A stretch of DNA of 41,423 bases from positions 1-41,423 of the IMG/VR virus record IMGVR_UViG_2728369188_000008; one strand, given 5' to 3'. Source of the stretch: a virus. Lineage: Duplodnaviria > Heunggongvirae > Uroviricota > Caudoviricetes. Both the position numbers and the translations under genes were made by a program. Numbering within the stretch: position 1 is the first letter of the stretch; every line of letters starts with the position of its first letter. The notes beneath the pieces were generated by a model. That model was not told the origin of the DNA and ran no database searches. It saw only the letters and a program-made list of their open reading frames with translations. Of the stretch, positions 6,258-18,723 are shown piece after piece.

Positions 6258-6584
6258 TCAAATAAGTGGTTTGCTGCCTAATTTCATTTTCTGGCGACCA
6301 ACACAAGTCACACCCATTTCACTGCGTGGCTTGCTGTACCATGTGCGCTGATTCTTGCGCTCAATACGTTGCAGGTTGCTTTCAATCTGTTCGTGGTATT
6401 CAGCCAGCACTGTAAGGTCTATCGGATTCAGTGCGCTTTCTACTCGTGATTTCGGTTTGCGATTCAGCGAGAGAATAGGGCGGTTAACTGGTTTTGCGCT
6501 TACCCCAACCAACAGGGGATTTGCTGCTTTCCATTGAGCCTGTTTCTCTGCGCGACGTTCGCGGCGGCGTGTTTGTGCATCCAT
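6258..6584 (-). CDS. N: Antitermination protein N
   Basis: MDAQTRRRERRAEKQAQWKAANPLLVGVSAKPVNRPIL... matches lambda N with its Arg-rich boxB-binding motif; downstream of nutL/PL. Confidence 0.95.
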   Translation of the reverse strand: MDAQTRRRERRAEKQAQWKAANPLLVGVSAKPVNRPILSLNRKPKSRVESALNPIDLTVLAEYHEQIESNLQRIERKNQRTWYSKPRSEMGVTCVGRQKMKLGSKPLI

Positions 6585-6782
6585 CTTGATTCTCCTGTCA
6601 GTTAGCTTTGGTGATTGGATGGCCGGCGCTGAACCCCGGCTTACTGGTTAGAGCGCCCGCACTACCAGTGACGCTGTCTTGAGGCGCAGATTGGTTACTG
6701 CTTGCCATGAGCGCTGTTTATACATTGGTCGAGCATCAGCCTGCTCATTCATCCAATCCCAAAGCCTTCTGCTTTGAATGCT

Positions 6783-6813
6783 GCCCTTCTTCAGGGCTTA
6801 ATTTTTAAGAGCG
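6783..6813 (-). promoter_or_regulatory. nutL (boxA CGCTCTTA and boxB GCCCTGAAGAAGGGC hairpin)
   Basis: Reverse complement of 6783-6797 is GCCCTGAAGAAGGGC; boxA complement at 6806-6813. Confidence 0.9.
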
Positions 6814-6852
6814 TCACCTTCATGGTGGTCAGTGCGTCCTGCTGATGCGCTC

Positions 6853-6915
6853 AGTATCACCGCCAGTGGTATTTATGTCAACACCGCCAGAGATAATTTA
6901 TCACCGCAGATGGTT
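6853..6915 (-). promoter_or_regulatory. PL promoter with OL1, OL2, OL3 operators
   Basis: Three 17-bp sites TATCACCGCCAGTGGTA (6855-6871), CAACACCGCCAGAGATA (6879-6895), TATCACCGCAGATGGTT (6899-6915); -35 and -10 on the minus strand. Confidence 0.9.
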
Positions 6916-7061
6916 ATCTGTATGTTTTTTATATGAATTTATTTTTTGCAGGGGGGGCATTGTTTGGTAGGTGAGAGATCTGAATTGCTATGTTTAGTGA
7001 GTTGTATCTATTTATTTTTCAATAAATACAATTGGTTATGTGTTTTGGGGGCGATCGTGAG

Positions 7062-7090
7062 GCAAAGAAAACCCGGCGCTGAGGCCGGGT
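7062..7090 (-). terminator. tImm-like intrinsic terminator after rexB
   Basis: Minus-strand hairpin cccggcctcagcgccggg followed by ttttcttt, overlapping the rexB stop. Confidence 0.75.
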
Positions 7091-7524
7091 TATTCTTGTT
7101 CTCTGGTCAAATTATATAGTTGGAAAACAAGGATGCATATATGAATGAACGATGCAGAGGCAATGCCGATGGCGATAGTGGGTATCATGTAGCCGCTTAT
7201 GCTGGAAAGAAGCAATAACCCGCAGAAAAACAAAGCTCCAAGCTCAACAAAACTAAGGGCATAGACAATAACTACCGATGTCATATACCCATACTCTCTA
7301 ATCTTGGCCAGTCGGCGCGTTCTGCTTCCGATTAGAAACGTCAAGGCAGCAATCAGGATTGCAATCATGGTTCCTGCATATGATGACAATGTCGCCCCAA
7401 GACCATCTCTATGAGCTGAAAAAGAAACACCAGGAATGTAGTGGCGGAAAAGGAGATAGCAAATGCTTACGATAACGTAAGGAATTATTACTATGTAAAC
7501 ACCAGGCATGATTCTGTTCCGCAT
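7090..7524 (-). CDS. rexB: RexB, membrane component of the Rex exclusion system
   Basis: 144-aa multi-pass hydrophobic protein matching lambda RexB; downstream of rexA in the PRM transcript. Confidence 0.95.
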   Translation of the reverse strand: MRNRIMPGVYIVIIPYVIVSICYLLFRHYIPGVSFSAHRDGLGATLSSYAGTMIAILIAALTFLIGSRTRRLAKIREYGYMTSVVIVYALSFVELGALFFCGLLLLSSISGYMIPTIAIGIASASFIHICILVFQLYNLTREQE

Positions 7525-7539
7525 AATTACTCCTGATAA

Positions 7540-8379
7540 TTAATCCTTAACTTTGCCCACCTGCCTTTTAAAACATTCCAGTATATCACTTTTCATTCTT
7601 GCGTAGCAATATGCCATCTCTTCAGCTATCTCAGCATTGGTGACCTTGTTCAGAGGCGCTGAGAGATGGCCTTTTTCTGATAGATAATGTTCTGTTAAAA
7701 TATCTCCGGCCTCATCTTTTGCCCGCAGGCTAATGTCTGAAAATTGAGGTGACGGGTTAAAAATAATATCCTTGGCAACCTTTTTTATATCCCTTTTAAA
7801 TTTTGGCTTAATGACTATATCCAATGAGTCAAAAAGCTCCCCTTCAATATCTGTTGCCCCTAAGACCTTTAATATATCGCCAAATACAGGTAGCTTGGCT
7901 TCTACCTTCACCGTTGTTCGGCCGATGAAATGCATATGCATAACATCGTCTTTGGTGGTTCCCCTCATCAGTGGCTCTATCTGAACGCGCTCTCCACTGC
8001 TTAATGACATTCCTTTCCCGATTAAAAAATCTGTCAGATCGGATGTGGTCGGCCCGAAAACAGTTCTGGCAAAACCAATGGTGTCGCCTTCAACAAACAA
8101 AAAAGATGGGAATCCCAATGATTCGTCATCTGCGAGGCTGTTCTTAATATCTTCAACTGAAGCTTTAGAGCGATTTATCTTCTGAACCAGACTCTTGTCA
8201 TTTGTTTTGGTAAAGAGAAAAGTTTTTCCATCGATTTTATGAATATACAAATAATTGGAGCCAACCTGCAGGTGATGATTATCAGCCAGCAGAGAATTAA
8301 GGAAAACAGACAGGTTTATTGAGCGCTTATCTTTCCCTTTATTTTTGCTGCGGTAAGTCGCATAAAAACCATTCTTCAT
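7540..8379 (-). CDS. rexA: RexA, sensor component of the Rex exclusion system
   Basis: 279-aa protein matching lambda RexA; directly downstream of cI. Confidence 0.95.
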   Translation of the reverse strand: MKNGFYATYRSKNKGKDKRSINLSVFLNSLLADNHHLQVGSNYLYIHKIDGKTFLFTKTNDKSLVQKINRSKASVEDIKNSLADDESLGFPSFLFVEGDTIGFARTVFGPTTSDLTDFLIGKGMSLSSGERVQIEPLMRGTTKDDVMHMHFIGRTTVKVEAKLPVFGDILKVLGATDIEGELFDSLDIVIKPKFKRDIKKVAKDIIFNPSPQFSDISLRAKDEAGDILTEHYLSEKGHLSAPLNKVTNAEIAEEMAYCYARMKSDILECFKRQVGKVKD

Positions 8380-8491
8380 AATTCAATCCATTTACTATGT
8401 TATGTTCTGAGGGGAGTGAAAATTCCCCTAATTCGATGAAGATTCTTGCTCAATTGTTATCAGCTATGCGCCGACCAGAACACCTTGCCGA

Positions 8492-9208
<717 letters not shown>

Positions 9209-9545: not shown

Positions 9546-9604
9546 ATCAAATTAAACCACACCTATGGTGTATGCATTTATTTGCATACATTCAATCAAT
9601 TGTT

Positions 9605-9645
9605 ATCTAAGGAAATACTTACATATGCAACTTACAAGTACTCGC
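9605..9645 (-). promoter_or_regulatory. Candidate PRE with CII box (TTGC-N6-TTGT) over the cII start
   Basis: Minus-strand TTGCGAGTACTTGT at 9632-9645, at the same offset from the cII ATG as the TTGC-N6-TTGC box of lambda. Confidence 0.45.
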
Positions 9646-9903
9646 AAGAAAGCGAATGCAATTACAAGCAACCTCCTGAATCGAATTGCTGTACGTGGTC
9701 AGCGAAAGGTTGCCGACGCGTTAGGGATTAATGAATCGCAAATTTCGCGATGGAAAGACAGCTTTATCCCAAAGATGGCCATGCTTCTGGCTGTGCTGGA
9801 ATGGGGTGTTGAAGACGAGGAGTTGGCGGAACTGGCTAAGCAAGTAGCCAGAATGCTGACAAAAGAAAAAGCCCCGAAGAACGGCGAATTCTTCGAGGCC
9901 TGA
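9625..9903 (+). CDS. cII: CII-like transcriptional activator (non-lambda allele)
   Basis: 92-aa protein; ESQISRWK...[13 protein letters not shown] core resembles lambda CII but flanks diverge; AAGGA RBS; start is the internal Met of track ORF 9565-9903. Confidence 0.8.
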
Positions 9904-14917: not shown

Positions 14918-15120
14918 CGTTCTCAGTAAAAACCATTCCAGACATGCTCGTTGAAGCATACGGAAACCAGACAGAAGTGGCACGCAGACTGAAATGTAGT
15001 CGCGGCACGGTAAGAAAATACGTTGATGATAAAGACGGGAAAATGCACGCCATCGTCAACGACGTTCTCATGGTTCATCGCGGATGGAGTGAAAGAGATG
15101 CGCTATTACGAAAAAATTGA
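14914..15120 (+). CDS. ninH: NinH
   Basis: 68-aa protein [37 protein letters not shown]... matching lambda NinH. Confidence 0.85.
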
Positions 15121-15769
15121 TGGCAGCAAATACCGAAATATTTGGGTAGTTGGCGATCTGCACGGATGCTACACGAACCTGATGAAAAAACTGGAGACGA
15201 TAGGATTCGACACCAAAAAAGACCTGCTTATCTCGGTTGGCGATTTGGTCGATCGCGGTACAGAGAACGTCGAATGTCTGGAATTAATCACATTCCCCTG
15301 GTTCCGAGCTGTACGTGGAAACCATGAGCAAATGATGATTGATGGCTTATCAGAGCGCGGAAACGTCAATCACTGGATGCTTAATGGCGGTGGCTGGTTC
15401 TTTAATCTCGATTACGACAAAGAAATTCTGGCTAAAGCTCTTGCCCATAAAGCAGATGAACTTCCGTTAATCATCGAACTGGTGAGCGAAGGTAAAAAAT
15501 ATGTCATCTGCCACGCCGATTATCCTTGTGACGAATACGAGTTTGGAAAGCCAGTTGATCATCAGCAGGTAATCTGGAACCGCGAACGAATCAGCAACTC
15601 ACAAGACGGGATCGTGAAAGAAATCAAAGGCGCGGACACGTTCATCTTTGGTCATACGCCAGCAGTGAAACCACTTAAATTTGCCAACCAAATGTATATC
15701 GATACCGGCGCAGTGTTCTGCGGAAACCTCACATTGATTCAGGTACAGGGAGAAGGCGCGTGGGCATAA
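15098..15769 (+). CDS. ninI: NinI serine/threonine protein phosphatase (calcineurin-like metallophosphatase)
   Basis: GDLHGC, GDLVDRG, GNHE metallophosphatase motifs; matches lambda NinI; start at internal Met (MRYYEK) of track ORF 15023-15769. Confidence 0.9.
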
Positions 15770-16248
15770 GAGAACTAAACCTCACCAAAGAGCAGCACGA
15801 GTGGCTGAATGGCTGGCTTGAACTGTGGGGTGCATGGGTTTATTCAGGTCGTCTGGAAAAGCGCATGAGCAGCGTAATAGCGAAGTTCATGGAGAGCGTA
15901 GAGCCAGGAAGAGTTATGACAAGGCCAATGTGCAATGATGATGATGGAATGTTGATTTCTCAGGTCGTCGATTCCGTCATGTACATTGACAAGAAAGCCT
16001 TTGGCATCCTCCTCAGCTACTACGCTCATGGATCTTCCAAGCACGCCATTGCATCTTACTATCATCGCGTCGCAAGACCTCGCAAGATGTTATGCCGGGG
16101 CGGCGGGCGCATTCAAAAACCATCGCTCGCAACCTGTCGTCGGGAAGTTGACGAAATCCTCAATGCCTCGTTGTTTATGATTTACCCGGTTCTGGATAGT
16201 GCGTTTAAAACCAGGAAACGTGTAGAGAAAATTAAACATGTAGCATAG
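15760..16248 (+). CDS. Q: Late antiterminator Q (non-lambda, QuuD/phage-21-like type)
   Basis: GTG start with GGGAGAAGG RBS; motifs WGAW and MCNDDD resemble what I recall of the E. coli prophage antiterminator QuuD; sits between ninI and the late promoter/lysis genes. Confidence 0.7.
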
Positions 16249-16254
16249 AACGTG

Positions 16255-16340
16255 TTGACATCATTGAGCAAATGAGCAACACTATTCGCATAAGCTGCCG
16301 TTAGTGACTCTTAAGTTGCAACGGTGGCTTTTTTTGTTTG
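16255..16340 (+). promoter_or_regulatory. Candidate late promoter PR' / qut region ending in a tR'-like terminator
   Basis: TTGACA at 16255-16260 right after the Q stop; hairpin 16296-16329 followed by TTTTTTTGTTTG; downstream sequence to S is lambda-like. Confidence 0.5.
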
Positions 16341-16772
16341 CACAACAGGTAAGAGCATTGAGTCGATAATCGTGAAGAGTCGGCGAGCCTGGTTAGCCAG
16401 TGCTCTTTCCGTTGTGGTGAATGCACAGGCTGATGTGCAAGGGCAAGAATCTTTCGCTGGATTCGGTGTGGCCACGTAGCCCGCTGTAGGCAGTTGCAGC
16501 AAACCGGAGATCAGCACCGGTCGCCACAATCCAAACTGAGCGTAGCCACTGGCTATCCTGAATTCATCAGTGATAGTTACGCTGCGGCCTTCTACACATG
16601 ACCTTCGTGAAAGCGGGTGGCAAGAAGTTGCGCTAACAACCTCCTGCCGTTTTGCCCGTGCATATCGGTCACGAACAAATCTGATTACTAAACACAGTAG
16701 CCTGGATTTGTTCTATCAGTAACCGACCTTATTCCTAATTAAATAGAGCAAATCCCCTTCTGGGGGTAAGAC

Positions 16773-17096
16773 ATGAAGATGCCAGAAAAACATGACCTGT
16801 TAGCTGCCATTCTCGCGGCAAAGGAACAAGGCATCGGGGCAATCCTTGCGTTTGCAATGGCGTACCTTCGCGGAAGATATAATGGCGGTGCGTTTACAAA
16901 AACAGTAATCGACGCAACGATGTGCGCCATTATCGCCTGGTTCATTCGTGACCTTCTCGACTTCGCTGGACTAAGTAGCAATCTCGCTTATATAACGAGC
17001 GTGTTTATCGGCTACATCGGTACTGACTCGATTGGTTCGCTTATCAAACGCTTCGCTGCTAAAAAAGCCGGAGTAGAAGATGGTGGAAATCAATAA
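16773..17096 (+). CDS. S: Holin S (class I, dual-start S107/S105)
   Basis: [39 protein letters not shown]... matches lambda S with Met1/Met3 dual start. Confidence 0.95.
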
Positions 17097-17556
17097 TCAA
17101 CGTAAGGCGTTCCTCGATATGCTGGCGTGGTCAGAGGGAACTGATAACGGACGTCAGAAAACCAGAAATCATGGTTATGACGTCATTGTTGGCGGAGAGC
17201 TATTTACCGATTACTCCGATCACCCTCGCAAACTTGTCACGCTAAACCCAAAACTCAAATCAACAGCAGCAGGACGTTACCAGCTTCTTTCCCGTTGGTG
17301 GGATGCCTATCGTAAGCAGCTTGGCCTGAAAGACTTCTCTCCCAAAAGCCAGGATGCTGTTGCGCTGCAGCAGATTAAGGAACGTGGCGCTTTGCCGATG
17401 ATTGATCGCGGTGATATCCGTCAGGCAATCGACCGTTGCAGCAATATCTGGGCTTCACTGCCTGGCGCTGGTTATGGTCAGTTCGAGCATAAGGCTGACA
17501 GCCTGATTGCAAAATTCAAAGAGGCTGGCGGAACGGTCAGAGAGATTGAGGTATGA
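17080..17556 (+). CDS. R: Endolysin R (lytic transglycosylase)
   Basis: 158-aa protein [39 protein letters not shown]... matches lambda R. Confidence 0.95.
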
Positions 17557-17990
17557 GCAGATTAACCGCGATTATCTCCGCTCTGGTTATCTGCATCATC
17601 GTTTGCCTGTCATGGGCTGTTAATCATTACCGTGATAACGCCATCGCCTACAAAGAGCAGCGCGATAAGGCCGCATCCATTATCGCTGACATGCAGAAGC
17701 GTCAACGTGATGTAGCAGAACTCGACGCCAGATATACAAAGGAGCTTGCTGATGCTAACGCGACTATCGAAAGTCTCCGTGCTGATGTTTCTGCTGGTCG
17801 TAAGCGCCTGCAAGTCGCCGCCACCTGTGCAAAGTCAACGACCGGAGCCAGCAGCATGGGCGATGGAGAAAGCCCAAGACTTACAGCAGATGCTGAACTC
17901 AATTATTACCGTCTCCGAAGTGGAATCGACAAGATAACCGCGCAGGTTAACTATCTGCAGGAGTACATCAGGACTCAGTGCCTGAAATAA
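17553..17990 (+). CDS. Rz: Spanin inner-membrane subunit Rz (i-spanin)
   Basis: N-terminal TM segment then coiled-coil; N-terminal third matches lambda Rz, remainder diverged. Confidence 0.85.
17746..17937 (+). CDS. Rz1: Spanin outer-membrane lipoprotein Rz1 (o-spanin), embedded in the +1 frame of Rz
   Basis: Signal peptide with lipobox LVVSAC followed by a Pro-rich mature region; entirely inside Rz. Confidence 0.75.
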
Positions 17991-18192: not shown

Positions 18193-18723
18193 ATGAAGTA
18201 CCCAACAGTTATTATCAATGGTGTGTCCGTTCGTGTTGATGAGGATGGACGCTACAACTTAAACGATCTCCATGCAGCAGCAGTTGCAAATGGAGAGGCT
18301 ACAGAGCAACAGCGCCCAAGCCAGTTTTTGCGTAGCGCGCAGATAAAACGCTTCATAAAAGCACTGGAGGCCAAAGTGCAAAAAAGCACTTTGGAACAAA
18401 TTCAACCACTTAAAATAATCAAAGGTGGTGTAGAACCCGGTGTGTGGGGTGTTGAACTTCTGGCAATCAGATATGCAGCATGGATTAAGCCGGAATTTGA
18501 AATCGAAGTTTATGAAGTTTTCAAAACGGTTGTCCGTCTCGGCGTTGGCGCAATGTCCCGTCTGAATAGAATCGATCACATCATCAATACTGAAACCAAA
18601 GCGATAAGCCAGTGCGCAAGCCAAATGGCTAAGTGGGGCGTTGGTGGGCGAAAAAGATTGCTTCATGTTGCACGTGAGAGAGCGGCAAATGAAGTGCAAA
18701 TGTATTTGCCCGGAATGGTGTGA
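18193..18723 (+). CDS. KilA-N domain protein
   Basis: N-terminal INGVSVRVDEDGRYNLNDL and GVWGVELLAIRYAAWIKPEFEIEVYEVF fit the KilA-N/APSES pattern. Confidence 0.65.
   Translation: MKYPTVIINGVSVRVDEDGRYNLNDLHAAAVANGEATEQQRPSQFLRSAQIKRFIKALEAKVQKSTLEQIQPLKIIKGGVEPGVWGVELLAIRYAAWIKPEFEIEVYEVFKTVVRLGVGAMSRLNRIDHIINTETKAISQCASQMAKWGVGGRKRLLHVARERAANEVQMYLPGMV

Follow-up and report, generated by a model that had tools for sequence, protein, structure and literature searches.

The Q antiterminators fall into separate families, and the Q21 family (PF06530) is distinct from both the lambda-Q family (PF03589) and the Q82 family (PF06323); lambda Q and Q21 nevertheless both work by a nozzle mechanism (PMC9388147). 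For phage 21, promoter-proximal pausing, Q loading and the nozzle mechanism have been described (bioRxiv 10.1101/651190; PMC6606751). The Q-binding element (QBE) of this phage was defined by Shi et al. 2019 as two direct TGAGCA repeats, with C residues at −21 and −13, and in the 21Q-engaged structure the bubble spans +3 to +15 in a complex arrested at +14 (PMC6606751). The phage 21 record OL657228 annotates a −35, two QBE subsites (QBEu and QBEd), a −10, a start site, an element for sigma-dependent pausing (SDPE) and a terminator.

Here, we analysed a stretch of DNA of 41,423 nucleotides (hereafter the window), which corresponds to positions 1 to 41,423 of the IMG/VR virus record IMGVR_UViG_2728369188_000008. 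In this stretch, a first-pass annotation had described a non-lambda Q gene fused to a lambda-type lysis cassette, with a very short late leader. We consider it highly probable (about 0.94) that the segment 15760–16340 is a canonical phage 21 late antitermination cassette (Q21, pR', QBE, SDPE and tR'), located between a lambda-like ninI and lambda-like S/R genes in a P22-like temperate phage or prophage. The mechanism that we propose for it rests on sequence identity to the experimentally characterised phage 21 system. The earlier observation is confirmed with small corrections of coordinates, and its interpretation is partly supported.

The Q gene encodes a protein of the Q21 family

The Q gene and the elements lying within or just upstream of it are listed below; all positions are those of the window.

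15749..15752, plus strand: ribosome-binding site of Q, GGAG, identical to the one annotated in phage 21 (OL657228)
15760..16248, plus strand: Q21-family antiterminator Q (162 aa), from a GTG start to a TAG stop (ORF listing, PF06530, PDB match)
16053..16085, minus strand: paQ, an antisense promoter located within Q; the paQ and CII features of OL657228 are identical
16053–16058, minus strand: −10 of paQ, TAAGAT (OL657228 annotation)
16072–16085, minus strand: CII site of paQ, TTGCGAGGTCTTGC (OL657228 annotation)

When the Q ORF (15760–16248) was searched against Pfam, PF06530 was the only family to score above its curated cut-off (E=8.8e-25). A match to DUF1133 remained below the cut-off, and the same search gave no match to PF03589, which places Q outside the lambda-Q family. 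Comparison with solved structures revealed that 161 of the 162 residues are identical to the phage 21 Q chains of PDB 6JNX and 6P18, the sole difference being N150T, and the gene differs from that of phage 21 (OL657228) by 12 nt. As described earlier, Q starts with GTG and is a phage 21-type, not a lambda-type, protein.

Phage 21 starts its Q gene with ATG, whereas the window has GTG at 15760. A GTG start was found in nearly all loci in which ninI lies upstream (the window, JEP4, 2851, phi458 and Sf6), while ATG was found where ninH or a ninH fragment is upstream, in loci that include the IMG/VR set. Moreover, in the reading frame of ninI, which overlaps here, the A/G difference is silent (GCA or GCG). 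Judging from these loci, the GTG start is a common allele and no sign of decay; translation of Q could be lower with GTG than with the ATG of phage 21.

The paQ promoter and the CII site within Q are identical to those of phage 21, and a CII-dependent antisense control of Q is therefore probably retained.

The late promoter, the Q-binding element and the pause element are those of phage 21

The window aligned without gaps to OL657228 over 15747–16340 (97.8% identity), and all 12 differences located upstream of the terminator fall inside Q. No mismatch is present over 16249–16335, which begins directly after the Q stop and ends with the T-run; the comparison with the phage 21 late region, which had been suggested as a check, thus gave base-for-base identity. 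The annotations of OL657228 were carried onto the window by a constant offset, giving the following elements.

16255..16260, plus strand: −35 of pR', TTGACA, same position and sequence as in the phage 21 annotation
16263..16278, plus strand: Q-binding element (OL657228 annotation; repeats and oligonucleotide of Shi et al. 2019)
16263–16270, plus strand: QBEu, ATTGAGCA (OL657228 annotation)
16271–16278, plus strand: QBEd, AATGAGCA (OL657228 annotation)
16278..16283, plus strand: −10 of pR', AACACT, after a 17-bp spacer (phage 21 annotation mapped onto the window)
16290..16290, plus strand: late transcription start, +1 = A (annotated start site of OL657228)
16291..16297, plus strand: sigma-dependent pause element TAAGCT(G), −10-like, +2 to +8, identical to the SDPE of OL657228
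16292..16339, plus strand: intrinsic terminator tR', a 17-bp hairpin followed by U7 and GUUU (fold; annotation in phage 21, Sf6 and HK75)

The −35 hexamer assigned earlier coincides with the annotated −35 of the phage 21 pR'. The same reading had found no convincing −10 at standard spacing; AACACT, 17 bp after the −35, is nevertheless the annotated −10 of phage 21. It had been missed because it keeps only 3 of the 6 consensus positions, with A(−11) and T(−7) retained. Likewise, a generic promoter and terminator consensus scan of 15700–16900 found neither pR' nor tR', because the −10 is weak and the hairpin is long and bulged. The scan result reflects these two features and is no proof that the elements are absent.

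The two TGAGCA cores (16265–16270 and 16273–16278) form direct repeats, set 8 bp apart in the interval from the −35 to the −10; nowhere else in the 41-kb window is TGAGCA doubled in this way. The oligonucleotide GCAAATGAGCAACA, used in the binding assay of Shi et al. 2019 (PMC6606751), matches 16268–16281 exactly. Moreover, the C residues of the QBE at 16269 (−21) and 16277 (−13), in the numbering of these authors, independently give +1 = 16290. Changing these C residues to G is reported to abolish readthrough in phage 21. By these matches, the qut site is the published Q-binding element within the promoter spacer.

Overall, the cis elements that precede the start site all lie within the 41 nt between the Q stop and this site, which is precisely the phage 21 layout. 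Two features account for the compactness of this region: the promoter spacer houses the QBE, and at +2 to +8 the pause element shares its sequence with the 5' arm of the terminator hairpin. It had been anticipated that the promoter and the qut site would be either compact or overlapping with the 3' end of Q: they are indeed compact, but they do not overlap Q, as the −35 begins 6 nt past its TAG stop.

The terminator and the short late leader

The tR' hairpin extends over 16292–16330, with its core from G16294 to C16328, and U7 is at 16329–16335. When the tR' RNA was folded from +1, the minimum free energy was −20.2 kcal/mol (z=−5.0), and none of 200 shuffled sequences folded as well. The hairpin through U7 is identical to that of phage 21.

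Counted from +1 through the final U of the tract, the leader measures ~46 nt, and the annotation of OL657228 gives a start-to-terminator interval of ~46–50 nt for phage 21. The late leader of lambda is ~194 nt. The distance from the Q stop (16248) to the T-run, previously estimated at ~90 nt, is 80 nt to the first T (16329) and 87 nt to the last, compared to 264 nt from the Q stop to the T-run in lambda. The short leader might be taken for a by-product of the fusion. This view does not hold, since phage 21 has the same interval and the window is identical to it; as this identity indicates, the ~46-nt leader is the native phage 21 design and no product of fusion.

Proposed mechanism of late antitermination

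The locus combines the features of a Q21-family cassette, namely a PF06530 Q, a sigma-70 promoter directly after Q, the QBE repeats, a pause element (recognised by its sequence) and an intrinsic terminator before the late genes, and S and R are found downstream of Q on the same strand. By analogy with phage 21, the sigma-70 holoenzyme would initiate at A16290 from TTGACA / 17 bp / AACACT. Sigma region 2 would then re-bind the −10-like TAAGCT (+2 to +7), and RNA polymerase would pause or backtrack at ~+14 to +18. Two Q21 protomers would occupy the two TGAGCA repeats in the promoter spacer, the upstream one forming a ring, or nozzle, at the RNA-exit channel through which the very short nascent RNA would thread. 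In the Q-modified polymerase, the tR' hairpin (+3 to +41) would be blocked and the U-tract (+40 to +46) read through, and readthrough would proceed past tR' and later terminators to reach S, R and Rz as well as the structural genes. In the absence of Q, the transcript is expected to end after ~46–48 nt.

Loading of Q would take place while the RNA is shorter than ~20 nt, at a stage that precedes synthesis of the hairpin's 3' arm (+25 to +41), so that a 46-nt leader should present no difficulty. Such a short leader would suit a factor that loads at this RNA length. Q-dependent terminator readthrough was shown with phage 21 Q on the identical cis sequence (PMC6606751), and the same outcome is predictable for the window from its identity to that tested sequence.

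Boundaries of the module and neighbouring genes

The flanking genes and the junction with lambda-like DNA are the following.

15098..15769, plus strand: ninI, serine/threonine phosphatase (PF00149, E=8.9e-17), whose last 10 nt overlap the start of Q
16336..16341, no strand assigned: right mosaic junction from phage 21-like to lambda-like sequence (three-way alignment of the window, lambda and phage 21, and mismatch list)
16341..16772, plus strand: untranslated late leader from tR' to S (blastn against lambda; no tRNA, no Rfam family)
16773..17096, plus strand: S holin/antiholin of lambda type (PF05106), 106 of 107 residues identical to lambda S
17080..17556, plus strand: R endolysin of lambda type, 156 of 158 residues identical to lambda R

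On the left side, lambda-like ninI sequence reaches 15759 and Q begins at 15760; the equivalent point in lambda (43884/43885) has a misc_recomb feature in the record of that phage, and the 3' end of ninI is 96.5% identical to lambda 43800–43885. On the right side, the sequence past the T-run reads G-TTTG-CACAACAGGTAAGAGC, which is the lambda sequence directly after the T-run of the lambda tR'. The single base next to the U-tract differs from phage 21 (G at 16336 instead of A). The exchanged module is therefore bounded precisely by the first codon of Q (15760) on one side and by the end of tR' on the other.

The late leader is lambda-like at 16341–16422 and again from 16525 through S and R, as determined by blastn against lambda. 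The claim that the downstream DNA is lambda-like through S and R thus stands apart from 16423–16524, but its onset had been placed at about 16320, and the junction lies ~16–20 nt further to the right; the hairpin and the T-run are phage 21 sequence. The intervening patch of ~100 bp (16423–16524), which is not lambda-like, is covered by JEP4 and HK629 at ~91.5% identity. ARAGORN found no tRNA gene in the whole window; phage 21 and Sf6 carry a tRNA-Asn/Thr pair after tR', of which neither the genes nor a remnant could be detected here. A permissive Rfam scan of 15500–17000 returned no family, apart from a chance match to snoU85 (E=0.17).

The lysis genes themselves are not uniform in origin. By their residue identities, S corresponds to the class I dual-start holin of lambda and R to its transglycosylase. 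The spanin genes are not of the lambda Rz/Rz1 type: Rz (17553–17990, 145 aa) shares 88 identical residues with the 153-aa Rz of lambda and is lambda-like over about its first 110 nt only, the DNA similarity to lambda dropping after ~17665. By these comparisons, the lysis cassette is itself mosaic. The start of Rz also has a 93.8% match to the phage 21 Rz. A 176-aa ORF (18193–18723) is situated after the lysis genes and before the following ORF block; in lambdoid phages, accessory (moron) genes are often found at this position.

Related loci and spread of the arrangement

Phage 21 (OL657228; PDB 6JNX, 6P18 and 6P19) shares with the window an identical −35, QBE subsites, −10, start, SDPE, hairpin and U7, as well as the ~46-nt leader and the internal paQ/CII site. 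The two differ in their surroundings: phage 21 has a ninH fragment upstream of Q, whereas the window has a full ninI, and phage 21 has tRNA-Asn, tRNA-Thr, the S21 pinholin and a SAR endolysin downstream, where the window has lambda-like DNA and the lambda S/R genes.

Lambda follows the same plan, in which the Q gene is succeeded by a constitutive promoter that contains a QBE, by sigma-dependent pausing close to the promoter, by an intrinsic terminator and finally by S/R, and its DNA is homologous to that of the window from just past tR' onward. Its Q is from the unrelated family PF03589. Lambda Q needs NusA.

The P22-like Escherichia phage JEP4 (MT740315) has the same combination as the window, namely ninI, a GTG-started Q21, tR', the junction sequence TTTTTTTGTTTGCACAACAGG and a lambda-type S, and it is 95.4% identical over 1101 bp, with few point differences. 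HK75 has the same junction sequence but carries ninH upstream, an ATG start and a 172-aa Q variant. The BEN2908 prophage also has this junction sequence, save for a T8 run instead of T7, and differs by an upstream ninH and an ATG start; three E. coli genomes, BEN2908 included, match the junction segment at 99.5%. In the Stx2c phage 2851 (FM180578), ninI, the GTG-started Q21, pR' and tR' are present at 96.4% identity, but the terminator is followed by tRNA genes and stx2, whereas the window has lambda-like leader DNA.

We also compared the variant Q of 172 aa found in Sf6, HK75, CUS-3 and HK629 (Sf6 561–1140, HK75 512–1090 and window 15760–16340). In these phages, ~94 N-terminal residues match Q21, tR' is identical and a lambda-type S follows downstream. 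The C-terminal, DNA-binding half differs (H95R, R128N and others), H95R and R128N being two changed base-contact residues among those named by Shi et al. 2019. Their spacer repeats are TAGCCA (TATCCA for the upstream copy in HK75), exactly at the positions of the two TGAGCA repeats of Q21, and, unlike in the window, the promoter overlaps the 3' end of Q, whose stop codon lies inside the downstream repeat. The 172-aa Q looks like an intragenic mosaic with a co-varying binding site, which would be a second specificity class in the Q21 family. In the Sf6 record, pR', qut and tR' have been assigned from their homology with phage 21, and a lambda-type S comes after them.

At a larger scale, 16 phage records cover at least 80% of the Q-to-S stretch, and 486 contigs of IMG/VR encode a relative. 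Among the best 80 of these 486 contigs, 71 have an identical terminator core, and three upstream contexts and two downstream contexts (phage 21-like tRNA DNA or lambda-like DNA) occur in most combinations. The Q21-to-lambda junction is also present in HK75, in E. coli prophages and in IMG/VR contigs. The 71 loci encode Q proteins that are 98–99% identical, and their pR'–tR' stretch is almost invariant, with the exception of a recurrent polymorphism at 16286–16287 (−4/−3), which reads TTCGCAT or TTGGCAT, and rarely TTCACAT or TTCTCAT.

The cassette of the window is thus already known: it is another copy of a structurally solved system, in a mosaic combination present in sequenced phages and prophages. 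Its value is that of a correct annotation, with precise coordinates for pR', QBE, SDPE, the start site and tR'. A short leader is normal for the Q21 family. The cassette offers a clean example of lambdoid modular exchange and has little importance beyond annotation.

Alternative interpretations

The short leader could also be taken to mean that the late promoter and the qut site overlap the 3' end of Q, or that transcription starts further upstream, in Q or in ninI. An overlap of this kind does exist in Sf6 and HK75, where the −35 and the Q-binding repeats sit inside the coding sequence of the 172-aa Q, but in the window the −35 (from 16255) lies past the end of Q (16248), as it does in phage 21. 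As for a start further upstream, the only other promoter-like match (15916–15945) is no better than those of shuffled sequence. A promoter overlapping Q was consequently rejected for the window, being true only of the 172-aa variant, and we give this interpretation as a whole hardly any credence. We regard as very improbable, too, that the cassette is an inactive relic in a decaying prophage, either because Q was disabled by the GTG start and point changes or because the lambda-like downstream DNA is incompatible with it. The GTG in place of the phage 21 ATG, N150T and the one base change beside the U-tract would fit such decay. The GTG start, however, tracks an upstream ninI in the isolated phages JEP4, Sf6, phi458 and Stx2c phage 2851 and is silent in the ninI frame, and was rejected as a sign of decay; T150 is found in the BEN2908 prophage as well. 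Moreover, the ORF is intact, every cis element is identical to that of phage 21 and the rest of the window matches complete P22-like phages. Which genes lie downstream is of no consequence, since Q, once loaded, acts on terminators in general.

Two further ideas concern the terminated leader itself. It may have a function of its own, as has been asked of the lambda 6S RNA; alternatively, the tR' hairpin and its U-tract may be a preferred recombination joint through which Q modules are exchanged as precise functional units. With regard to the first idea, 'aRNA' is the annotation of the terminated leader in AJ237660, an older phage 21 record. As to the second, CUS-3 is annotated with a 'boundary sequence' that extends from the Q stop to tR', and the tR' stretch occurs with either of two Q specificity types and with either of two kinds of downstream sequence. 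Neither idea is new, nor does the window bear specifically on them; we see only a very slight chance that they apply here. The canonical phage 21 cassette remains our preferred reading.

Genome context

The whole window resembles P22-like phages, namely CUS-3, phiv205-1, vB_EcoP-720R6 and Sf101. Within 6258–9205, minus-strand ORFs are presumably lambda-type N (6258–6584), rexB (7090–7524), rexA (7540–8379) and cI (8492–9205), as read from their translations only, and an ORF at 9565–9903 (plus strand) is taken to be CII-like, again from its translation only. A lambda-type immunity region thus appears to be carried by a genome with P22-like structural genes.
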